Under the pieces are notes generated by a model. That model made no database searches. It was not told where the DNA came from and saw only the letters and a program-made list of their open reading frames with translations. 64,000 nt of DNA from an uncultured bacterium (GTDB lineage Bacteria; Krumholzibacteriota; Krumholzibacteriia; JACNKJ01): contig CAVOFT010000001.1 in NCBI GenBank assembly GCA_963695095.1, forward strand, positions 2,592,001-2,656,000, given 5' to 3'. Below, piece by piece: positions 1,454 to 18,745 of this stretch. Position numbers and translations under genes: made by a program. The number at the start of each line of letters is the position of its first letter. The stretch's first letter is position 1.

Positions 1454-1816
1454 GGTGGAGGCGGCGGGAATCGAACCCGCGTCCGAAGAAACGTCCACCA
1501 GTGCATCTACATGCTTAGTCCACAGCTTTGTTTCTCGCCGCGCGCGAGGACGGCGGACGATCCGTCGCGCAGCCAGTCCGGTGTTTCTCGCCCCCTGTCT
1601 CCGGACGCGACAGGAAACCAGCCAGCGGATTATGATACCCGACCCCCACTCCCGCGGCGCAGGTGGGGCGGGCAGGTCACCTAACTAAGTTAGGCGGCCA
1701 GGGCCAAGTTATCGTTGGCAATTGTGTTTTCTCGATCTTGGTAACGGGGCTGAATCGAGAAGTCCCCGGCATGCAGCTCCAGCTTCTTGGATCCCCGTCG
1801 AAACCTGGTCGCCCCC
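1454..1816 (-). ncRNA. ssrA: tmRNA; tag peptide ANDNLALAA* at 1719..1690
   Basis: 5' GGGGGCGACCAGGTTTCGACGGGG, 3' T-arm GCGGGTTCGATTCCCGCCGCCTCCACC, internal tag frame GCC AAC GAT AAC TTG GCC CTG GCC GCC TAA. Confidence 0.97.
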
Positions 1817-1874: not shown

Positions 1875-4800
1875 TCATTTGAGCAAGACCAACTTCTCGC
1901 TGGCGGTGAAATCCCCCGCCACCATGCGGACGAAATAGACACCGCTGGCCACGCGGGCGCCGGCATCGTCGGTGCCGTTCCAGACCACCTCGTGCTCGGC
2001 GGCCGGCAGCGGCATGTCCACCAGCGTGCGCACGCGGCGGCCGGCGAGGTCGTAGACCACCAGGCGCACCTGCTCCGGCGTGGCGATCGCGAAGTGCAGG
2101 GTGGTCTTCGGGTTAAAGGGGTTCGGGTAGGCGCCGGCAAGTGCGGTGTGCGCGGGCACCGCGTCCGCACCGTCTGGCAAGTAGTTGGGATCGAAGCCGC
2201 AGAGGTAGGCCAGCACATCGCCCACCAGGCGGCGCGGGTAGTCGTAGCCGTCGCCGAGACCAAAGCCCGCGTTCCGGACGTCCTCGTAGTTGAAGGGGTT
2301 GAAGAGCGTCCGGTTGGTGAAGCCAAGGGCGCTGGTGGCGAGGCCGTCGCCATCGGGATCCATGTTGTAGATGCCCGCCTTGGCCTCGCTGCCGCCGGTG
2401 ACCGCCCAGGCGAAGGCCTCCACCGCGAGCGGGTTGGCCGGGTTCGGCTTCACGAGATCGAGGTTCTCGATCGTGGGGCAGCCCGCGGCCACCTCGACGT
2501 AGGGCGTCCGGCCACCGATCGCCAGCGCCGGATGCGTGGCGTAGACGCGCGGCACCTTGATGCCGGTCAGGTCGTCGTAGTAGGTGCCGCTGAGGATGCG
2601 CCAGGCTCCCAGGGTCTCCCGGAGGAAGCTCGGCTCGTCCTCGAGGTCGGTCGCGACCTCGTTGCCCATCACCCAGAGCGCGGTGTTGTGGGCGCTGTTC
2701 GCGAGCCAGTCGTCCAGCAGGACATCGTCGAAGGCGATGTCGTCCGGCAACCCGTTCTGGATCGTGTAGGTGGGCAGGTCGCCGCTGTCCCAGACGATCA
2801 TCTCGTACTGGTCGATGTCGCCGATCTCGGCGCGGCCGCCGAGGCCGTTGTGCAGGCCCGAGCTCGGCGCCTGCGTGGTGTAGACGTCATAGTCCGCGAA
2901 GCCGTTGTAGGCGAAGGCCTCGCGCCAGGGGGCGATCAGGCTGCCGCTGCCCGCATCGGGGTGGCTGGCGTCGTCCACGAAGAGCAGCGTGGCGCCGGCC
3001 GTGGGCAAGCAGCGGAGGATGTAGGTAGCTGCGCAGCAGCGGGTCCGCGCTCTCGGCCCAGAGCGGCTGCGTGTGCCGGCCGCCCGCCGCCGAGTGGGCA
3101 CGGTAGTAGAACTCGATGATGTCCCCCGGCTCGAAGTAGTCGTCCGCGAAGTCGAAGGCGAACTGCGCCCGGCTCGCAGACGCCCTGCTCGCGCGCCGTG
3201 TCGGCGATGGCCACGTTCCAGGTCTCGCCGTTCAGCACCGCGGTGCCGATCCAGGGCGACCAGATGCCGTCGCTGGCGTCGGGGTCGCCCATCGCCGGGT
3301 CGGTGGAGCCCGCGTGCGGCCCGGCCGTCACGCGGGCGTGCAGGTAGAGGCTCGGCCGCACTTCGCCCGGCACGCCGGCGAGATCGGGCGCGATGCCGCC
3401 CTCGGCGTCCATGTTGAGGTCGATCTTGGTCGAGTCGCCGATCACGAGCGTCGTGCTGGTCGTCGGCTGCACGTCGATGGCGCTGTCGATGCGCACCTTG
3501 CCGCTGGCCTCGGGGAAGTTGTCCTGGAAGCGGCGGAAGACGTCCACGTTCCAGGCGACTGAGGTGTTGCCGTTGACGATCATCGCCGAGATCGTGTCGA
3601 AGTAGGGTGCCGGCGTGTGGGGCTCCTCCCCCCCGAAACACCACGCCTCGCACATGTCGATTGCGGTGAAGGCGATGGAGAGTCCCTGCACGTTGCCGCC
3701 GTGCGCCGCTGTCGCCATGCGCAGCGTGTAGTCGAGGAAGGAGTCGCGCCAATCGTCTTCACCGTAGTAGACGGTGTTGTTGTTAACCCAGGAGCTGAGA
3801 CAGGGCGTGCCCTCGACCTGTGCGGCGACGTGCAGCATGTAGAAGACCAAGGTGCTGATCGGCAGGTCGCAGTAGACCATGGCGCGCACGAGGAACGTGC
3901 TGTTCCCGTCAAGCGCGTCGTCGACACTCTGCCCCACCGGATCCCCCAGACCGTGCGCCCGCTCGAAGAGCGGGCTCTGGATGCCGTTGTCGAAGTAGGG
4001 CGGGCCGTAGGGCGTCACGGGGATCGGGTAGTCGGGGTTCGTCGTGTACAGATCGAAGAAGGCCCAGGCGTAGGTGGAGTTGATGATGCAGGGGTCCTCG
4101 GCGAAGAGGTTCTTGTACAGGGCGCCGTAGATGCCGGCGCCTTCCGGATAGGTCGCCGCCAGCGCGGGGAAGTCGGCCTCGACGCCGCTCTCGAAGTCCC
4201 AGGCGACGTCCGGCGCGCCCTCGTAGTCGACGACGAGGTTGTCGATCCACACCGCGCCGATGTCCGTGAGGAAGGAGCCGTCCTCGTCCGACCAGCCGCC
4301 GTCCGACTTGAAGGCGAAGATCAGCTCGTCGACGGCGCCGAAGGCGATGGGACCGTAGTGGATGACGGTGCGCTCGCCGTTCGAGTGATGTTGTAGGCCG
4401 ACTCGATCGGATCGGCGTCGCCGGTGCTTCGCGTAGAGCGTGAAGTAGTCGTAGTCGTCTGCCCTCGAAGTCGCCGATGTAGTCGAACTCCATCGTGCCG
4501 CCGTGGCCGCGGCCGGAACCGTGAGCACCAGCCACTGGCTCCAGTCGGTGCCGTAGCCGTTGGAGTTGAACCAGCCGCAGGCGTTCTCGCGTCCGCACCA
4601 CCAGGCGTAGTCGTTGCCGGCCGTGGGGCCGCCATCGGCGAAGTCATCCACCGACGAGAAGTCCGTGCCGTGCCCGTTGCTCAGGGTGAGCGCCTGCAGG
4701 TGCCAGTAGGTGCCGAGCTGGGCGGTGGCGTCGTAGGTGGTCCAGCCGGCCGTGGTCGGGCCGCCGGCGCCGTTGTCGAAGGTGTAGCCGCGCGCGTTGG

Positions 4801-5110: not shown

Positions 5111-8100
5111 TTACTTGAGCATGACCAACTTTTCACTCGCGCGGAAGTCTCCCGCCACCAGACGCGCGAAGTAGACGCCGCTGGCCACGCGGAGGCCGGC
5201 GTCGTCGGTGCCGTCCCAGACCGCTTCGTGCTCGGCCGCCGACAGCGGCATGTCCACCAGCGTGCGCACGCGGCGGCCGGCGAGGTCGTAGACCACCAGG
5301 CGCACCTGAGCCGGCGCGGCCAGCGCGAAGTGCAGGGTTGTCTTCGGGTTGAAGGGATTCGGCGCCGCTCCCGCGAACGCAAAGCGCGCGGGCACCGTGT
5401 CCGCGGCGTCCGGGCTCGCATTGGGCTCGAAGCCGCAGAGCGCCGAAAGCACGTCGCCCACCATCCGCCGCGCATAGTCATAGCCATTGCCAAGGCCGAA
5501 GCCCGCGTCCCAGACCTCGGCATAGCTGAACGGATTGAAGAGCGTGCGGTTCGTCCAGCCGCCGGGACTGGTGGCCAGGCCATTGCCATCCGGATCCTGG
5601 TTGTAGATGCCCGCCTTGGCCTGACTGCCGCCAGTCGCTGCCCAGGCGAAAGCCTCCACCGCGAGCGGGTTGGCCGAGTTCAGCACGACCAGGTCCAGGT
5701 TCTCGATCGACGGGCAGCCCGCGTCCACGGTGAAGTAGGGATCGAGGCCGCCGATCTCCAGGGCGGGGTGCGTCGCGTACACCCTGCGGCATCTTGACGC
5801 CGGTCAGGTCGTCGTAGTAGGTGCCGTTGAGGATGCGCACAGCCCCGAGGGCCTCGTTCAGGAAGCTGGGCTCGTCCGCCAGGTCGGTGGCCACCTCGTT
5901 GCCCATCACCCAGAGGCAGGTGTTGTGGGCGCTGTTCGCAAGCCAGTCGTCCAGCAGGACATCGTCGAAGGCGATGTCGTCCGGCAGCGCGTTCTGGATC
6001 GTGTAGGTGGGCAGGTCGCCGCTGTCCCAGATGATCAGCTCGTACTGGTCGATGTCGCCGATCTCGGCGCGCCCGCCGAGCCCGTTGTGCAGGCCCGAGC
6101 TGGGCGCCTGCGTCGCGTAGATGTCGAAGTCCGTATAACCGTTGTAGGTGAAGGCCTCCTGCCACCAGGGCAAGGTGGTGTTGGCGTCGTCGCAGAAGAG
6201 CATCGTCACCCCGGCCGTGGGCAAGCAGCGCAGGAGGTAGTGCTCGCGCAGCAGCGGGTCCGCGCTCGCAGCCCACAGCGGCCGCGTCGAGACGGTGCCC
6301 AGGGCAGAGATCGCCCGGTAGTAGAACTCCAGGACGTCCCCGGGCTCGAAGTAGTCGTCCGCGAAGTCGAAGGCCCAGGAACCGGGGCTCGGCGTGCCCT
6401 GGTAGCGGGCCGTGTCGGCGATGGCCACATTCCAGGTCTCGCCGTTCACCACCGCCGTGCCGATGTGCGGCGACCAGATGCCGTCGCTGGCGTCGGGATC
6501 ACCCATGGCTGGATCCGTGGAGCCCGCATGCGGGCCGGCCACCACCCGCGCGAGCAGGTAGACGCTGGCCCGCCGCTCGCCGGGCACGCTGACGAGGTCG
6601 GGCTGGATGCCGCCCTCGCCGTTCATGTTCAGGTCGACCCGGGTCGAGTCGCCGATGACGAGCGTGGTGCTGTTGGTGGGCTCGACGTCGATGGCGCTGT
6701 CGATGCGCACCTTGCCGGAGGCCTCGGGGAAGTTGTCCTGGAAGCGGCGGAACTGGTCGATGTTCCAGGCGATCGAGGAGCTGTTCACCAGCATCATGGA
6801 GATCATGTCGAAGTAGGGCGCCGGCGTGTGGTAGGTGCCGTCGCCGTAGGTGTTGCACCAGACGGCGCACTGATCGACCACGCCCAGCCGCACGCCGACA
6901 CCGGTGACGTTGCCGCCCCCGGCCGACATGTTGAGCCGGAGTGTGTAATCGAGAAACCAGTCCTGCCAGCCGTCCTCCCCGTAGAAGAGCGTGTTGTTCG
7001 TGTACCACTGCCCGTAGCAGGGCTGGCCCTCCACCTGCGCAGCCACGTGCAGCTCGTAGAAGACCAGCGTATTCAAAGGCAGGTCGCGATAGACCATGTA
7101 GCGCACGAGGAATTGCGAGTTGGCATCGTGGGCCTCATCCACGCTGAGGCCCACGGGATCGCCGAGCGCGTGCGCACTTCTCGCAGCACCGGACTCAGGA
7201 TGCCGTTGTCGAAGTAGGGCGGGCCGTAGGGCGTCACCGGAATCGGGTACTCGGGGTTGGTCGTGTTGAGATCGAAGAAGGCCCAGGCGTAGGTGGAGTT
7301 GACGATGCACTGATCCTCGGCATACAGGTTCGCGTAGAGCGCGCCGTACATGCCGGCGCCGGGCGCGAAGCTGGCCGCCAGCTCCGGGTAGTTGGCCTCC
7401 ACGCCGTCCTCGAAGTCCCAGGCCACATCCGGCGCACCCGTGTAGTCGATCTCGACGTTGTCCAGCCACACCGCGCCGATGTCCGAGGTGTAGGAGCCGT
7501 CCTCGTCCGACCAGCCGCCGTCGGAGCGGAACTCGAAGATCAGCTCGTCGACGGCGCCGAAGGCGATCGGGCCGTAGTGGCGCACGAGCTGCTCGCCCTC
7601 GACGTTGTTGCTCAACAGCTCGACGGGCTCGTCGCCGCCGGTCTTGGCGTAGAGGGTGAAGGTGTCGTAGCTGTCGCCCTCGAAATCGCCGATGTAGTCG
7701 AACTCGAGCGCGCCCGCCGTAGCCGCCGCGGGCACGGTGAGCACCAGCCACTGGTCCCAGCTATTGCCATAGCCGGTGGGATTCGTCCAGCCACAGGCTT
7801 CCTCGCGGCCGCACCACCAGGCGTAGTCGTTGCCTGCCGTGGGCCCGCCATCGGCGAAGTCATCCGGCGCTGGAGAAGTCCGTGGGATGCCCATCGCTCA
7901 GGGTGAGCGCCTGCAGGTGCCAGTAGGCGGCGTTGTCCGCGGTGCCATCGTAGGGCGTCCAGCCGGCCGGGGCCGAGCCCCCGTTGCCGTCATCGAAGGT
8001 GTAGCCGCGTTCGTTGGTGCCCGGCATGCCCCAGGCGCCGGGGCCCGAGGCGGCGAAGAGAAAGAGCGTGTCGGCCCGCAGCGCCGACGTCGTCACAGTA

Positions 8101-8222: not shown

Positions 8223-8368
8223 CGTCTTACCCCCCAATCAGGCAGCAGAGGTTCCGAGACGGATCGGCCGAGCGAAGCCGATCCTGTCCGCCGCCGGCCC
8301 CCCGGCGATAGGGGGCCTGGAGCGCCGGCACGGACTCGTGTGGGGCAAGCTACTCAACTATAGCTGCT

Positions 8369-10157
8369 TCAGGACTGCCTGTCCACCAGGCGCTCCCAGC
8401 GGAGGTAGAGCGCCGCCAGCTCGGCCCCGAGCGCCTCGAGCCGGGCGCGATCCTGGGCCACTTGAGCGCCGGCCCGCTGGTAGTGGGCAGGATCGGCGAG
8501 CCGCGCGTGCAGGTCCCCCTGCTCGGCCTCCAGGCTCTCGATGCGCCCGGGCAGCGCCTCCAGCTCCCGCTCCTCGCCCCAGCTCAGGCGCTTCGCGGGC
8601 GCGGGGCGCGCTTGCTCTCGCGGGCGGCTGGCGGCCGCCTTGGCGCGCGCGGGCGCCGAGCGCCGGGTGCGGGCCCAGTCCGAGTAGCCCCCCACCGTCT
8701 CGGCCACCGCGCCCGCTCCCTCCAGCACCAGCGTGCTGGTGGTGACGTTGTCCAGGAACTCGCGGTCGTGGCTCACGAGCAGCAGCGTGCCCGGCCAGGC
8801 GACGAGCTGCTCCTCGAGCAGCTCGACCGTCTCCAGGTCCAGGTCGTTGGTGGGCTCGTCGAGCACCAGCAGGTTGGCCGGACGCGCCAGGAGCCGGGCC
8901 AGGAGCAGGCGGTTGCGCTCGCCGCCGGAGAGACGGCTGAGCGGCGAACGCAGCTGCTCCGGGGCGAAGAGGAACTGCTGGAGATAGCGAGGTCACGTGC
9001 ACGCTGCGGCCGCCGACCGTCAGCATCTCGCCGCCCTCGGTCACGTTGTCCTGCACGCTGCGGGCTTCATCCAGCTGGTTGCGCTGCTGGTCGAAGTAGG
9101 CCACCTGGAGGCCCGCGCCCAGCTCCACCGTGCCGCCCTGCGGGGCCAGCTCGCCCAGGATGAGGCGGAGCAGGGTGGTCTTGCCCGAGCCGTTCGGGCC
9201 CAGGATGCCCACCTTGTCGCCGCGCGTGATCACCGTGCTGAAGCCGCGCAGGATCACCTGCTCGCCCCAGGCGAAGTCCACGCCGCGGGCGCGCAGGACC
9301 AGGCGGCCCGAGCGCTCGGCATTCTGCAAGCCCAGCTGCGCGCCGCCGGTTCGCTCGCGGCGGGCCTGGCGTTCAGCCCGCAAGCGCTCCAGCGCCCGCA
9401 CGCGCCCCTCGTTGCGCGTGCGCCGGGCGCGGATGCCCTGGCGCAGCCAGACCTCCTCGGCCGCCAGCTTGCGGTCGAACTCGGCGTTCTGCGCCAGCTC
9501 GACCGCGGAGAGCGCCTCGCGGCGCTCGAGATAGGCGGCGTAGTCGCAGGCCCAGCTGCGCAGGCGCCCGCGATCCAGCTCCAGGATGCGCCCGGCCAGA
9601 GCGCGCAGGAAGGCGCGGTCGTGGGTGACGAAGAAGAGCGCGCCCGGGAAGCGCCGCAGCTCGCCTTCGAGCCAGGCGATGGCGTCGATGTCCAGGTGGT
9701 TGGTGGGCTCGTCGAGGAGGAGCAGGTCCGGCGCCACCACCAGGGCGCGGGCGAGCAGGGCCCGCCGCTTGCCGCCGGTGGAGAGCGTGGCCAGGTCGGC
9801 GTCACCGTCCAGACCGGCCCGCGTGAGGGCCTGCTCCACCAGGTGGGCCTGTTCGGGTCCGGCCGGCGGCAGGCCGGCCGCGGCGAAGCCCGCGGCCACC
9901 GTCTCGCGCACGCCGCCGGCGAGCGGCTCCGGCAGCTCCTGGGGCAAGAGGGCCACGCGCAGGCCCGGGGCGCGGGCGATCTCGCCGGCGTCGGGGGCCA
10001 GCGCGCCCTGGAGGAGGCGAAGCAGGGTGGTCTTGCCGGCGCCGTTGCGCCCCAGCAGGCAGATGCGCTCGCCGCGCTCGATCTGCAGCTGGACGCCGTC
10101 AAGGAGGAGCGGCCCGCCCAGGGCGAGGGAGACGTGCTTGAGGTCGACGAGGGCCAT
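8369..10157 (-). CDS. uup: ABC-F family ATPase Uup (one extra base near 8990)
   Basis: Two NBDs (GRNGAGKTT, GPNGSGKTT, LLLDEPTNHLD, LDEPTNDLD), linker 'WLRQGIRARRTRNEGRVRAL', C-terminal coiled coil ending 'LYLRWERL'. Confidence 0.88.
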
Positions 10158-10277
10158 GGCGGCAGAAGGTAGAGCAGCGCGCCGGACGGGGCAAGCGACC
10201 CCTCGGGTGGAATGTAGCCGGCACCGCAGTCCAGCCGCTTGCGGACGCTGCGCTCGCGGCACTCGCCAATGCAGCCC

Positions 10278-11540
10278 TCAACGAAGCAGGAGCAGCTTCT
10301 GGTTCGCCTGCAGGCCCGCACCCTCCAGCCGCGCGAGGTAGAGCCCCGTTGGCTGCGCGCGGCCGCTGTCATCCTCGCCGCGCCAGATCAGCTCGTGGTG
10401 CCCTGCGCCGCGGGCCTCGTCGAGCAAGGTCGCGACGCGCCGCCCCGCCGCATCGTGGATGCTCAAGCGCACCCACGCGCCCTCGACGAGCGTGAAGCTC
10501 AGCGTGCTGGCCGGATTGGCCGGATTCGGCCAGGGCGCTTCCAGCCGCAGCCTTGCCGCCGCGAGCGACGGGGCCGCCACCGCGTTCGGCAGGCCAATGA
10601 ACAGGTGCACCAGGCCCTGGTTCGAGCCGACGAGCAGATCCTGGCGGCCATCCCCGTCCCAGTCCCAGGCGAAGGGGCGGGACCGGCCCTGGTCGCCGAG
10701 GTCGATGGGCTGGCTGAGGCTCTCGCAGTGCCCGCCCGCGCCGAAGGCCGGCGCCGCGTGGCTGCCGAGATTGCGATAGAAGTACAGCTCGCCTTCGGAG
10801 TTGCCGCAGATGAGATCCTTGGCGCCGTCGCCGTCGAAATCGGCCACGGAGGGACTCGAATAGCCCAGCGGCACGACGAGCTGGCCGTCGCCGTCCGCGA
10901 TGTAGAGCGTGTGCCGGAAGTCCGGCGGCAGGCCGCCGCCCTCGTTGTAGTAGAGGCGCAGCTTGCCGTCGATGGAGCCCACGAGCAGGTCGAAGCGGCC
11001 GTCCTCGTTCCAGTCCACGATGCAGGGGGTTGCCCGGCCACCCACCGAGATGTCGAACTTGCCTCCGGACGGCCCCACCTGCACGCGGGCGCCGGTGTCG
11101 AAGAGCGGCGCCTCGGCCGTGCCCACGTTGAGGTGGATGTAGACGAAGCCGTCGCTCGTGCCCAGGATCAGATCGGGGAGTTCATCGTCGTTCCACCGCG
11201 CGACGCGCGGCGCCAGGCCCAGGCATCAGCCGCCGGGGTAGTTCAGTTCCCCGGCCGTGGTCTGGAGAAAGCTGAAGTCGCCGAAGCTCGGCGGTCCCGC
11301 CAGACCCTCATTGAGGTAGAGGCGCACCTTGCCGGGGATGAGCCCGCTCCCCTCGCCGACGAGCAGGTCGACGAAGCCGTCGCCATCGAGATCCGCGAGG
11401 CAGGGCACCGAGTGACCGTCGACGATGAGCGTCTCGCCGTGGGCGGGCAGGTCCTGCTCGGCAGCAAACTGGATGAAAGCCGCTGCGGGAGCGGCTGCCA
11501 CCAGGACTGCCAGCGTCAGGAGTGCACGAACTCCAATCAT
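10278..11540 (-). CDS. Secreted FG-GAP/VCBS-repeat protein with C-terminal FlgD-Ig domain; in-frame TGA at 11228..11226 (candidate selenocysteine, residue 105)
   Basis: ORFs 11226..11540 and 10278..11126 are in the same frame; read-through gives ...LNYPGG*CLGLAPRVARWNDDELPDLILGTSDGFVYIHLN...; repeated DxDGDGxxDLLVG motifs; signal peptide; PWPNPANP...QKLLLLR tail. Confidence 0.85.
11194..11212 (-). promoter_or_regulatory. Candidate bacterial SECIS hairpin
   Basis: CGCCGCGC-GUC-GCGCGGUG 8-bp stem (one G-U) starting 14 nt after the UGA; apical loop begins with GU at +22. Confidence 0.55.
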
Positions 11541-11696: not shown

Positions 11697-13667
11697 ATGC
11701 GCGAGAGGCTGCTGCTTGGTCTGCTCTGGCTGGTCGCCGCGACGGCGGCCCTCGCCCAGGCCCCGCTCCCCTCTGCCCTGCTCGACGCGCCGCTGGCCCG
11801 CCTCGGCCATGCCGACAGGGCCAGCCTGCGCGAATTCCTGGGCCCCGATTCGACCCTCGTCCTGATTCTCTGGAACACGGACTGTCCCGATTGTCTCGAG
11901 AATGTCGCCGAGGCCGGAGCCCTCGCGGCCACGCTCCCCTCGCTCCGCGTGCTCGGGGTGATGGACGACGCCGATCCCTGGGATGCGCTGGCTTTCGCCG
12001 AAGCGCGCGGCCTCGACTTCCCGAACCTCCACGATCCCGGCGGGCTCTTCGCCACCGCCCTCGGCACCGAGGGCAGCAGCTTCTCCTTCGCCCTGCTGGA
12101 TGGCGCTGGCGGCCTGCTCGCGCTCGCCGTCGACAAGCAGCCCGATGCGGCCGCCGCCCTTCGCGCCGCGCTGGCCGCCCTGCCCGCTGCGGCGCCGGTC
12201 GGAACCGCGCCCAGACCGGGCGAAGCTGCGGCGCAGGCGCCCGCGGCCGCACACTTCCCGCTCGTGAGCGGCAGCGGGCAACTCCGTCTCGCCGCCCTGG
12301 CCGTGGGCCTCGAGGACCGCCTTGGCGAGGGCCCCTGCCCTGGCGAGCCCGCGCTCTGCGCCTGCAGCCTGGGCGGCGCCTACGGAGAGGACCTGCGGCC
12401 GCTGGCCGATGTCCTCTTCCGGCTGCGCTACGAGCTCGTCGCCCAGCTCTCGCCCCGCCTGCGCGCCGGCGCCTTCCTGCGCCTCAGCAACGAGCCCGTC
12501 GCGCTGCTCGCCCAGGGCCCCGAGTACCTCTCGAGCGAGCGCGGCAGCGCCTTCGCGGAGTATGCGACCGGCGCCTGGTCGGCGCGCCTGGGCTGGACGG
12601 CCCTGCACTTCAGTCCGCTCACCCTCCAGCGCTGGGACTTCGCGGACAATCCGCCCGTCGCCGGCACCGGCGGGGCCGGCGGCTGCGGCGCTTGCGGCGC
12701 CACCAGCCACGCCCTGGCGCTCGAGGCCCTGGACGAGCTGGGCCCCGAGCTCACGGTCGAGGGCCTGCGCCTGCAGGGCTCACCGCGTCCCTGGCTGAGC
12801 GCCACCCTCGCCTATGCCCGCCCGCGCCGCGCGCAGGCCTTCGACGCCAATGCCGATCCACCCTTCGCCTATCGCCAGGATCTGCTCGCGGGCCGGCTCG
12901 CGCTGCGGCCCCCGCTGGGCCGCGGCCGGCGCGCGACGCTCGCGCTCCACTACGTCGCCGCCAACGAGGACGGCGGCTCCGCGCGCTGGCCGCTCTACGC
13001 GGGCGACGCGCGCAGCTTCGTCCGCCATGGCGAGGTCTACGGCGCGCTGCTCACCGCCCCCTTGCCCGGCGGCCTCGAACTCGAGCAGGAGGCCACGCGC
13101 AGCACGACGCGCGTGGACCGCATCGACGCTCGCGGCGAGGCCGTCGAGGACTGGGCCTATCGCGGCGAGCTGAGGGCCGCGCTGCCGGGCTCGCTGCATC
13201 TCGCCGCCGCCCGGCTGCGTCTGGGCCCGGACTATGGCGGCGAGTACCGCGCGCTCTCCTACCTGCCCAACACGGAGGGCTGGCGCTTCGCCGCCGGCAT
13301 GCGCAGAGAACGCTGGGGACTGGCCCTCTTTCACAAGCGGCTGACGCGCTGCGAAGGGCCCGAGCTGGGCACGAGCCTGGCCGAAGCGCGCAGCAGCGGG
13401 GTTCTGCTCAGCCTCGTCCCCGGGGCCGGCAGCGGACTCGAGCTGGGCGGCACCTGGATTCGCGAGCGGCTCGAAGGCGCAGCCCTCATCGGCGACTGCC
13501 GCTGCGCGCGCGATTGCGACAAGCGCATCCTCACGCTGGCCGGGCATCACGGCCTGGGCCCGCGCACCCGGCTCAGCCTCGAGCTGAGCCGGATCGACAG
13601 CGAGGACGGCAGGGGCGGCGAGGCCGAGTCCGATCTGGCCCGCCTCCTGCTCTCGACGGCGTTCTGA
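11697..13667 (+). CDS. Secreted TlpA/redoxin-like CxxC domain fused to a probable outer-membrane beta-barrel with Cys-rich loops
   Basis: Signal peptide; 'LILWNTDCPDC' and 'LDFPNLHDPGG' thioredoxin-fold motifs; C-terminal alternating beta-strands ending in Phe (LLSTAF); CPGEPALCAC, GCGACG, CRCARDC. Confidence 0.7.
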   Translation: MRERLLLGLLWLVAATAALAQAPLPSALLDAPLARLGHADRASLREFLGPDSTLVLILWNTDCPDCLENVAEAGALAATLPSLRVLGVMDDADPWDALAFAEARGLDFPNLHDPGGLFATALGTEGSSFSFALLDGAGGLLALAVDKQPDAAAALRAALAALPAAAPVGTAPRPGEAAAQAPAAAHFPLVSGSGQLRLAALAVGLEDRLGEGPCPGEPALCACSLGGAYGEDLRPLADVLFRLRYELVAQLSPRLRAGAFLRLSNEPVALLAQGPEYLSSERGSAFAEYATGAWSARLGWTALHFSPLTLQRWDFADNPPVAGTGGAGGCGACGATSHALALEALDELGPELTVEGLRLQGSPRPWLSATLAYARPRRAQAFDANADPPFAYRQDLLAGRLALRPPLGRGRRATLALHYVAANEDGGSARWPLYAGDARSFVRHGEVYGALLTAPLPGGLELEQEATRSTTRVDRIDARGEAVEDWAYRGELRAALPGSLHLAAARLRLGPDYGGEYRALSYLPNTEGWRFAAGMRRERWGLALFHKRLTRCEGPELGTSLAEARSSGVLLSLVPGAGSGLELGGTWIRERLEGAALIGDCRCARDCDKRILTLAGHHGLGPRTRLSLELSRIDSEDGRGGEAESDLARLLLSTAF

Positions 13668-16472: not shown

Positions 16473-17117
16473 TCAGGGGACGCGCTCCACGGCGCAGCGA
16501 GCGCGGGCCTGGCGGCTGCCGAGGCCGGCCATGCGGCGCAGGAGGCGCTCGGAGCCGCCGCGCAGTCCGCCCAGCAATCCCGGCGCGCCGCGCGCATCGC
16601 CGCCGGCCAGCCACTGCTCCAGCTCGCGCAGCTCGGCCGCCGTCAGCGGCTCCAGGCGCGCCTCGATCTCCAGCTCGACGGCGACACCGGCGGGCAGGCC
16701 GGCGGGCAGCAGCAAGGTCTGCGCGCGCGGCTTGCCGAGTTCGGCGGCCAGCGCCCCGGCATCGGCGCACTGCGCCAGCCGGCGGCCGCGCGCGTCGAAG
16801 AGCGTGTAGCGCGCCTCGAGCACGTCGTAGAAGAGACGCTGGCGCAGGACGCCGTTCGCCACTTCGCGGTCCCACCAGCCCTGCCGCCGCTCGAACAGGC
16901 GCCAGCGCAGCAGGAGCGCCGCGGGCAGTCCGGCGTCGAGGCTCTCCTGCAAGTCCGCGTCGACGAAACCCGCGAGCGCCACCTCGACCTCGAGGGCGGC
17001 GCCCGCCAGCCGCGCCGGCCCGAGTTGCAGGGTCGGCTCGCCGACCGCGGGCCGGGCCCCGCCCAGGGCGAGGCCCGCCACCACGAGAACGAGCGCCCAT
17101 CCTCCCCGGCGCGGCAT
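16473..17117 (-). CDS. DUF4390-like exported protein
   Basis: Signal peptide, 'ESLDAGLPAALLLRWRL...WWD...LFYDVLEARY'; NtrY/NtrX-type neighbourhood typical of the family; TGATG coupling to upstream gene. Confidence 0.6.
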   Translation of the reverse strand: MPRRGGWALVLVVAGLALGGARPAVGEPTLQLGPARLAGAALEVEVALAGFVDADLQESLDAGLPAALLLRWRLFERRQGWWDREVANGVLRQRLFYDVLEARYTLFDARGRRLAQCADAGALAAELGKPRAQTLLLPAGLPAGVAVELEIEARLEPLTAAELRELEQWLAGGDARGAPGLLGGLRGGSERLLRRMAGLGSRQARARCAVERVP

Positions 17118-18745
17118 CAGAAGGCCCGCTCCAGGCGCAGTTCCAGCACGGTCTGGTCGCTGCCGTCCAGGGTGCGCATCAGGTTCAGGCGCAGGCCGGC
17201 GTCGTCGCTGCCCAGGCCGATGCCGGCGCTGTCCTTGAGATCGGCGGCGGCCATCTCGGCGTCCCGGTCCGCCCAGGCCATGCCGGCGTCGTAGAGGCCG
17301 TAGATGTCGAGCTCGTCAAAGATGCCCAGGCGGTACTCGAGGTTGGCCAGCAGCATCCGCTCGCCGCCGTAGGCAGCCTGGAGGCCGGAGGGGTCCGCGA
17401 CCAGCAGCGACTGGTAATCGTAGCCGCGCACGCTGCCGAAGCCGCCGAGGAGGAAGCGCCGCTGCAGGGGCAGGGCGCCGCGCAGGTTGCTGGCGCCCTT
17501 CACGCGCAGGTCCAGGTGCTGCGCCTCGCCCAGGGGCAGGCGGCTGCGCAGCATTGCTTCTGCGAGGGAATAGTCGAAGTCGCCGCCGAGGACGTCCTCG
17601 CCCGCCCGCTCCCAGGCCAGGGCGATGTGATTGAGCGGCGTGCCCAGGCGCAGGCTCCCGTAGACGCTGCGCAGGGTGCCCTCGTCGATGGGCAGGTTCG
17701 TGCGGAAGCGGCCGCTGTGAAAGGACCAGGTGGCCGTGTTGCGCATGTAGGCGTGGTCCTCGCTGCGCAAGCCCGCCTCCACCCGCAGCCAGTCGGGCGC
17801 CAGGGCGACGAGGCTGAAGGCCGCGCCCTCGCGACGATAGTAGTCGCGGTAGTCCTCGCGGAAGAAGACGGCGGCGAGCGAGTTCTCGGTGTCGCCGACA
17901 CCCGTGCGCGGCGCGTAGGCGGTGCCGCCCAGGCCCTCGAACTTGAGCCAGAGGCGCTGCCCCGGCACCAGCGGCTGAAGCAGCGTCAGGCCCAGGCTCC
18001 AGCGCTCGCTCTCGAAACCATAGGCGACGAGCCCCTGCGCGGAGGGCTCGAAGTCGGCCTCGGCCACGTGCTCGGGTCGCAGGCCGAGCAGGAGGCCGTC
18101 CACGCGCTGGTAGTCGATGGTGAGATCCTCGCCATCCTCGCGGTGGCCCAGCTCCGCGCGCAGGCGCCGCCAGGTGGCCTTCTCCCGGCGCCAGTGGCCG
18201 CGCTCGAGATCGCCGGTGACGAGCACCGAGACCCAGCCGCCGTCATCCAGACGCTGGGCCTGCGTGTTGGCGGGGTCGATGGCCTCCCACTCGCCCTCCT
18301 CGTCCCTGACGATGAAGCGGTAGTGGTGCCGGCCGGGCGCAAGCTCGAGGCTCAGGGTCCAGCACCGCTCCTCGGGCAGGTAGTCCATGGGCAGGCGGTC
18401 CCAGTCCAGCCAGTCGCCGGTGAGCGCCACCGCGCGATAGCCCTCGTCGGCGTAGCGGAAGCGCAGGCGGCCGTCTTCATCGGGCGCCCAGAGCCCCTCG
18501 CTCTCGTCATCGTCCGGCCAGTCCGCGTCGGCGGTCTCGGCAGAGCGCCCCTCGCGCGACCAGGCGCGCTCCCAGGCCTCGTCCCAGTCGTCCTTGACCG
18601 TGAGCCACCAGCTGGGAGCCGTGTCGGGCTCTCGGTCGAGGGTGCTCAGCGCGGCGGCCGGCAGCGGCGGGGCGAGCAAGAGGCAGAGCAGCCCGGCCAG
18701 GGAAAGGCGACGGGCCAGCGGGCGGGGATTCGGCTTCGTCTTCAT
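17117..18745 (-). CDS. Omp85/BamA-TamA-like outer membrane protein with N-terminal CBM48/AMPK-type glycogen-binding domain
   Basis: 'VALTGDWLDW...LELAPGRHHYRFIV...DPAN' (AMPK1_CBM-like); 'RFLLGGFGSVRGY' Omp85 loop-6 motif, 'YGGERMLLANLEYR', C-terminal Phe. Confidence 0.8.
   Translation of the reverse strand: MKTKPNPRPLARRLSLAGLLCLLLAPPLPAAALSTLDREPDTAPSWWLTVKDDWDEAWERAWSREGRSAETADADWPDDDESEGLWAPDEDGRLRFRYADEGYRAVALTGDWLDWDRLPMDYLPEERCWTLSLELAPGRHHYRFIVRDEEGEWEAIDPANTQAQRLDDGGWVSVLVTGDLERGHWRREKATWRRLRAELGHREDGEDLTIDYQRVDGLLLGLRPEHVAEADFEPSAQGLVAYGFESERWSLGLTLLQPLVPGQRLWLKFEGLGGTAYAPRTGVGDTENSLAAVFFREDYRDYYRREGAAFSLVALAPDWLRVEAGLRSEDHAYMRNTATWSFHSGRFRTNLPIDEGTLRSVYGSLRLGTPLNHIALAWERAGEDVLGGDFDYSLAEAMLRSRLPLGEAQHLDLRVKGASNLRGALPLQRRFLLGGFGSVRGYDYQSLLVADPSGLQAAYGGERMLLANLEYRLGIFDELDIYGLYDAGMAWADRDAEMAAADLKDSAGIGLGSDDAGLRLNLMRTLDGSDQTVLELRLERAF

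Follow-up and report, generated by a model that had tools for sequence, protein, structure and literature searches.

A predicted family of exported FG-GAP propeller selenoproteins with an in-frame UGA and a downstream SECIS-like hairpin

To our knowledge, almost every bacterial selenoprotein described so far is a redox enzyme of the cytoplasm or periplasm that has a thioredoxin-like or metal-cofactor fold, and we know of no integrin alpha or BBSome propeller that carries selenocysteine (Sec). Enzymes of the thioredoxin reductase type use a vicinal Cys-Sec redox centre, which lies in a Gly-Cys-Sec-Gly motif. The text of a 2026 catalogue of selenoproteins gives as criteria for a bacterial SECIS element (bSECIS) an apical loop of 3–9 nt with a G within its first two nucleotides, an upper stem of 4–16 bp, a location 16–37 nt after the UGA and an MFE ≤ –7.5 (PMC13188914). 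Here we describe a gene from a member of the Krumholzibacteriota, situated in a stretch of 64,000 nucleotides that we refer to as a whole as the window. An in-frame TGA divides its coding sequence, and the best explanation, to which we assign a probability of roughly 85%, is that the two parts constitute one intact gene for a predicted exported, Sec-containing propeller protein.

A 104-residue ORF (11226..11540, minus strand) and a 282-residue ORF (10278..11126, minus strand) share the same frame and are separated only by a single stop, TGA 11228..11226, and 33 further sense codons. Reading through this TGA yields a product of 420 residues with the sequence ...NYPGG-U-CLGLAPRVARWNDDELPDLILG... 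(U105, C106) around the junction. The continuity of the frame goes beyond chance because Cys-containing homologues pass this point uninterrupted. The proposal in the initial annotation that one in-frame TGA joins the two ORFs into a 420-residue protein is thus borne out both by the frame and by these homologues. The features of the gene and of its divergently encoded neighbor are as follows.

10278..11540, minus strand: entire gene of 420 codons, containing a single internal TGA and closed by a terminal TGA (10280..10278); full-length homologues at 40–69% identity
11478..11540, minus strand: predicted signal peptide, approximately residues 1–21 (one Arg, a hydrophobic run, AAA-F), read from the sequence
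11226..11228, minus strand: in-frame TGA, U105, predicted to be read as selenocysteine from TGA conservation and the Sec machinery
11223..11225, minus strand: TGC, encoding Cys106; this column is the family's invariant Cys/Sec position (34/34 hold one or the other)
11194..11212, minus strand: SECIS-like hairpin with an 8-bp stem and loop GUC, formed by Pro-Arg-Val-Ala-Arg codons, 21 nt after the UGA
10581..11474, minus strand: predicted five-bladed FG-GAP propeller, residues 23–320, with five D-x-[DN]-x-D-G-type loops (Pfam, AF2 model, fold matches)
10281..10550, minus strand: predicted C-terminal beta-sandwich sorting domain of the type IX secretion system (T9SS) type, residues 331–420 (FlgD_ig and copies in the genome)
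11697..13667, plus strand: divergent partner with a signal peptide, a redoxin domain (residues 40–140) and a C-terminal domain of about 500 residues ending in Phe (Pfam AhpC-TSA/Redoxin)
11883..11894, plus strand: C63-P-D-C66 of the partner's redoxin domain, from the sequence

Querying the phylum's 208 species genomes with residues 1–314 (E ≤ 1e-40) gives 36 matches in 29 genomes. The aligned set comprises 34 of these; two fragments at contig ends that have no stop (G001:C315 and G011:C207) were excluded. Exactly one in-frame TGA is present in 21 of the 34 homologues and none in the other 13, and the column of Cys106 holds Cys or Sec in all 34. Three states of the site can be distinguished: G-U-C-[LM]-G, the type found in the window, in eight genes from genera g1 and g3; G-U-[LMVP]-G, with U inside the Cys column, in 13 genes; and G-C-[LM]-G, also in 13. 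The initial annotation anticipated a conserved TGA or an aligned Cys at position 105. TGA or Cys does occur at the site in every homologue (21 and 13, respectively), but the Cys/Sec column is that of C106, and U105 itself faces the Gly of the Cys forms, one residue before the invariant column. This movement of Sec between two adjacent positions inside one family is unusual.

In a quick maximum-likelihood tree of 31 rows, from which three truncated rows were dropped, the eight U-C genes form one clade (support 93). The tree implies at least four label changes overall, and one Cys form (G057) falls within a U clade. U-C genes occur alongside Cys paralogues in three genomes (G001, G004 and G009). 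In G001, which is of the same genus as the source of the window, a U-C-type gene and a Cys paralogue are found 2.5 kb apart on one contig (L062, G001:C31:3500-12800), and a near-identical U-C gene on another contig, C247, reflects either strain heterogeneity or duplication. In 29 of the 34 homologues the column of W292, on the inner strand of blade 5, holds a further Cys (R-P-F-x-C-D-W); the window's protein has Trp and G001 has Leu at this position. As a candidate resolving Cys this residue was set aside, since the topology of the model would place it at the far end of the inner strand.

If the TGA were a nonsense mutation, translation would end there and the gene would be a pseudogene producing a 104-residue fragment or nothing useful. 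Gene callers do split or truncate such genes, as the initial annotation expected of standard annotation, and the public proteins of the Sec form measure only 282–314 residues. In addition, the ABC-F ATPase gene next door, located downstream at 8358..10262 (minus strand), is frameshifted, with a break near 8950..9000. Its homology in one frame stops at ...GGRSVHVTS and resumes in another; the break is either an indel of the assembly or genuine, so that some faults exist in the assembly or the genome. A pseudogene is nevertheless highly improbable. In 21 of the 34 homologues (40–69% identity) and in 16 distant genes described below, a TGA stands at this column or the one beside it, conservation of the protein is equal on either side of the TGA, and the U-C genes represent one old clade across two genera. 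The same frameshift could also be taken as a sign that the TGA is a sequencing or assembly error in this genome, and contigs from four read runs leave 11162..11231 uncovered, the best run containing 0.11 of the sampled words. Such an error is scarcely credible, as 19 further species of the phylum, assembled independently, have the TGA.

The case for a single intact gene with a recoded UGA also draws on the decoding machinery. The genome (3.64 Mb in two contigs) encodes all four of selA, selB, selC and selD, which the initial annotation had proposed to look for, with a tRNA-Sec at 71.9 bits (anticodon TCA), selA at 430 bits, selB at 337 bits and selD at 342 bits. The selD gene is itself of the Sec type, with one in-frame TGA in ...AGG-U-SAK... 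and a hairpin with a 3-nt G-first loop about 17 nt downstream. Of the phylum's 208 species genomes, 200 contain selA, among them every one of the 20 carriers of a TGA form, and so do 125 of 125 high-quality genomes. Selenocysteine use therefore appears universal in the phylum, and the co-occurrence of selA with the TGA form inside it is uninformative for the same reason. Among genomes of other phyla, selA was present in five of five TGA-bearing genomes tested; among Cys-form genomes it was present in three of five tested, the other two being without it.

One could argue that read-through of the UGA occurs without insertion of Sec, either by near-cognate insertion of Cys or Trp or in a different genetic code. 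The alignment of U105 with the Gly, not the Cys, of the Cys forms would fit such a mechanism. Four observations speak against it and make it very unlikely. Of the propeller family's 31 complete genes, 15 terminate with TGA, so the codon also serves as a stop in these organisms, and the full Sec machinery is present in the genome. Furthermore, in 13 relatives the TGA lies exactly at the invariant Cys, a classic Sec/Cys pair, and a hairpin at SECIS distance is present in Sec forms and rare in Cys forms, as detailed below. Overall, the selenoprotein reading of the internal TGA is strongly supported by these sequence comparisons.

The family also occurs in other phyla. Scanning one genome per species and aligning against residues 41–200 gave 79 loci, of which 31 have TGA at one of the two columns. 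These 31 consist of 12 U-type genes, three U-C genes of the window's own type and 16 more distant U-C genes. Cys is present at the site in 27 loci (one of them a weak alignment), including all close Planctomycetota relatives, and the remaining 21 have another residue at the site or no alignment. The 16 distant U-C genes have the pattern [GWY]-U-C-[VTI]-G..P-[QR], show 27–37% identity and come from WOR-3, Aegiribacteria, Planctomycetota, Vicinamibacteraceae and Verrucomicrobiales. Removal of duplicates and weak alignments leaves a distinct set of 74 sequences (24 U-C, 15 U and 35 Cys).

Downstream of the UGA, the 8-bp hairpin with a GU-initiated loop that was initially annotated at 11212..11194 is present as described. 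It has the sequence CGCCGCGC-GUC-GCGCGGUG, with 8 bp including one G.U and 21 nt between the UGA and the loop. Its stem of 8 bp, loop GUC, spacing of 21 nt and energy of –13.4 kcal/mol all fall within the bSECIS ranges quoted above from the catalogue text. Compared with dinucleotide shuffles, however, its MFE is not above chance (–16.6 vs –18.1 ± 2.3, z = +0.64). The hairpin alone is thus no better than chance, and the case for a SECIS element rests on comparison. In a strict test, a contiguous-stem version of the published bSECIS model, 25 of 39 Sec forms pass (17/24 U-C and 8/15 U) compared to 2 of 35 Cys forms. By this measure, derived from the criteria in the catalogue text, Sec forms mostly keep a downstream hairpin and Cys forms are mostly without one, which favors the selenoprotein reading of the initial annotation. 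Random places of this G+C-rich genome pass the strict test in 510 of 3000 cases, and only 3.9% of such places reach –12 kcal/mol, against –13.4 kcal/mol for the hairpin itself. A bulge-tolerant version of the test does not discriminate, as it is passed by 37/39 Sec forms, 21/35 Cys forms and 173/300 random places of the genome.

The codons that make up the stem point in the same direction as the strict test. CCG CGC GTN GCG (Pro-Arg-Val-Ala) is kept in all Sec forms of the window's type and in the related Sec forms. In the Cys forms, the Pro and Arg codons vary and Val replaces Ala, and the Arg codon is CGC in 22 of 23 Sec forms versus 16 of 35 Cys forms. The U forms of family f4 have a different hairpin, CCGCGU-GGUCG-ACGCGG, and altogether three clades have three different hairpin solutions. 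Covariation of the hairpin, proposed in the initial annotation as a check, was found in one part of the family and not in another. Among the eight sequences of the window's own type the stem never varies, and RNAalifold picks another fold and gives no compensatory pairs. For the 16 distant U-C genes, RNAalifold gives one hairpin in the same place. In its 7-pair version 93.8% of cells are paired and three pairs are changed on both sides, one of the covarying pairs being formed by the third base of the Pro codon and the second base of the Val/Ala codon. The covariation score of this hairpin is reached by 0 of 500 shuffles, and slid registers pair at 28–41%, but kinship and G+C content could partly account for the A/U–G/C covariation in this clade.

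The read-through protein is recognized by the Pfam models FG-GAP_3 (76.8 bits, gathering threshold 26.9) and FG-GAP (53.8 bits, threshold 22.1). Among the NCBIfam matches there is no family-level model and no selenoprotein model. An AF2 model built from the 34-row alignment (pLDDT 86.7, pTM 0.72) predicts an N-terminal helix, five four-stranded blades in residues 23–320 and a beta-sandwich in residues 331–418. Within the signal-peptide region, the helix spans residues 2–14 and pLDDT is low at residues 16–21. The description of the protein in the initial annotation as a beta-propeller-type repeat protein is supported by this model, which specifies five blades. A wide fold search places five-bladed propeller enzymes at the top, led by 3nqh_A (Z 18.2, rmsd 3.5 over 249 residues, 10% identity). 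Foldseek against the PDB returned only low-TM integrin and BBSome matches, and the seven-bladed architecture of an integrin-type propeller is not seen in the five-bladed model.

In the model, U105 and C106 are located in the loop of residues 102–109, which enters the inner strand of blade 2 (residues 110–114); the Asp-rich loop follows that strand. Propeller topology would put Sec close to the central opening, on the face away from the Asp loops. In the other blades, the corresponding loops contain near-invariant R169, S229/P230 and R286/R288/P289, and the invariant pairs S44/P46 and P111/R112 are also among the loop residues. The predicted Arg-lined pocket suggests an anionic substrate.

The U-C-type gene is accompanied by the divergent redoxin gene in six genomes of two genera (G000, G002, G004, G009, G010 and G011), in each case as an orthologue with CPDC and a C-terminal Phe. 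The C-terminal part of this partner resembles DUF6029 clusters (Atlas score 0.95), which we regard as a lead only. This partner gene was not found in the examined flanks of U-type, Cys-type or distant U-C genes. Likewise, 41 flanking ORFs at 20 loci, chosen from 95 candidates in 22 loci, contain no shared partner of these three types; the flanks include TamB twice and Peptidase_C25 with DUF362 twice. The latter arrangement is found in Aegiribacteria (L146 5195-8581 and L149 5321-8722, both minus strand), where a distant U-C gene adjoins a Peptidase_C25 gene with Por_Secre_tail and a DUF362 gene. Elsewhere in the window we observe a tmRNA gene at 1454..1816 (minus strand) with the tag peptide ANDNLALAA, and, at 17117..18745 (minus strand), the gene for an Omp85-family protein in which an AMPK1_CBM-like domain and a match to DUF5686 are recognized.

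The protein could be a genuine selenoprotein in which the Sec/Cys site serves as a soft-metal ligand, for binding, sensing or a cofactor, instead of as a redox or nucleophilic catalyst. Metal- and cluster-binding selenoproteins with vicinal U-C or C-U are described in the catalogue text, such as the GxUC or CU of the CopZ family (PMC13188914), and just one Cys/Sec is invariant in the present family. On the other hand, pairing with the CPDC redoxin gene is suggestive of thiol-disulfide chemistry, no conserved His/Cys cluster is seen near the site and no His is found among the invariant residues. We consider a metal-binding role the less probable alternative, although one to be taken seriously, and infer instead that the function would be that of an extracytoplasmic redox or nucleophilic catalyst.

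The C-terminal domain matches FlgD_ig with 33.4 bits (cut-off 27), whereas TIGR04183 gives 14.9 against a cut-off of 23; some relatives carry PF18962. Searching the genome with the whole protein gives 153 matches, nearly all of them to residues 300–420. The genome also encodes T9SS machinery, with the sortase PorU (438 bits) and the translocon protein SprA (424 bits, or 532.5 when summed with a neighboring match in frame) both above their cut-offs. The many copies of the C-terminal domain, together with PorU and SprA, imply that the protein is most likely a T9SS cargo, as predicted from these sequence matches. The "FlgD-Ig" tail, which the initial annotation took for a secretion-type CTD, is more specifically the predicted T9SS-type sorting domain of this genome. 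Two further ORFs in the window, 1875..3752 and 5111..5782 (both minus strand), end in the same sorting domain (genome positions 2593878-2594162 and 2597114-2597425), and the neighborhood of the gene is rich in T9SS-type cargo.

The following mechanism is consistent with the intact-gene reading. At UGA 11228..11226, SelB and Sec-tRNA(Sec) would insert selenocysteine under the direction of the short, G+C-rich hairpin that lies about 21 nt downstream, and the ribosome would continue past the UGA to complete the 420-residue protein. The signal peptide would then mediate passage through the inner membrane, after which the C-terminal sorting domain would direct the protein through the type IX secretion system to the cell surface or the outside of the cell. 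Judging from the topology of the model, the pocket in the blade-2 loop with Sec105 and Cys106 may be the catalytic site, in which Sec or Cys would be redox-active or nucleophilic. In the subtype found in the window, Sec105 and Cys106 may form a vicinal selenenylsulfide, and gene order suggests that the divergently encoded protein with the CPDC redoxin domain could re-reduce it.

The public entries for the Sec form are named "hypothetical", "T9SS type A sorting domain-containing", "FG-GAP-like repeat" or "VCBS repeat". The text of the 2026 catalogue (PMC13188914) contains none of the words FG-GAP, VCBS, propeller, repeat, T9SS or sorting, although its supplementary tables could hold unnamed entries. 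FG-GAP, VCBS and propeller are likewise absent from the texts, supplementary tables aside, of the deep-Sep paper (PMC12013277), a 2022 review (PMC9312934) and the GOS paper (PMC2398784). Full-text literature searches for FG-GAP, VCBS or beta-propeller selenoproteins gave nothing relevant. Thus the view that this selenoprotein family is without a name agrees with the texts of the published catalogues, in which we found no match; supplementary tables aside, this appears to be a widespread selenoprotein family that is absent from them. Its range extends from the phylum of the window to Planctomycetota, WOR-3, Aegiribacteria, Acidobacteriota and Verrucomicrobiota.

A more far-reaching proposal is that this multi-phylum family provides the first examples both of beta-propeller selenoenzymes and of selenoproteins that type IX secretion delivers to the cell surface. 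In the propeller's central pocket, Sec, or Sec with Cys, would act in extracellular redox reactions of an anionic substrate, and in the window's subtype an outer-membrane-tethered CPDC redoxin would re-reduce this centre. We put this forward tentatively, and as a whole it is rather doubtful. An exported propeller family with a conserved Sec/Cys site would in itself provide a functional handle, in the form of a single catalytic residue, on the very large "VCBS/FG-GAP repeat" class of proteins that is without an assigned function. The comparison also exposes a systematic annotation error, as public databases split or truncate these propeller genes.

The window's protein shares features with several known systems. 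Like the FG-GAP/VCBS propellers of integrin alpha and the BBSome, which are its best PDB matches by Foldseek, it belongs to the same repeat sequence family, but those propellers have seven blades compared to five in the present model, and the TM score is only about 0.3. The overall fold of the model is that of the five-bladed enzymes of GH43, GH32, GH62 and GH130, among them 3nqh_A (Z 18.2); identities to these enzymes are 7–15%, however, and the common fold shows no function. With T9SS cargo proteins it shares a predicted signal peptide and a C-terminal beta-sandwich of about 90 residues that is common to about 150 proteins of the genome, although its TIGR04183 score is under the cut-off and Pfam FlgD_ig fits better.

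The closest parallel for the site itself is thioredoxin reductase, which also has adjacent Sec and Cys flanked by Gly, where a selenenylsulfide would in principle be reducible by a thiol partner. The propeller protein differs in the order U-C, in the location of the site in an internal propeller loop and not a flexible C-terminus, and in having no flavin domain; moreover, most of its relatives hold only one of the two residues. In its gene organization, it resembles the bacterial genes with a SECIS element inside the ORF that are described in the catalogue text, with an in-frame UGA, Cys homologues and a small G-first loop 16–37 nt further on (PMC13188914), and the selD of the same genome has the same kind of hairpin. 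The difference lies in the host, which here is a predicted exported FG-GAP propeller and not a protein with a thioredoxin-like, dehydrogenase or reductase fold. If this assignment is true, an exported Sec/Cys propeller family would broaden the use of selenium in terms of protein structure as well as of location in the cell.
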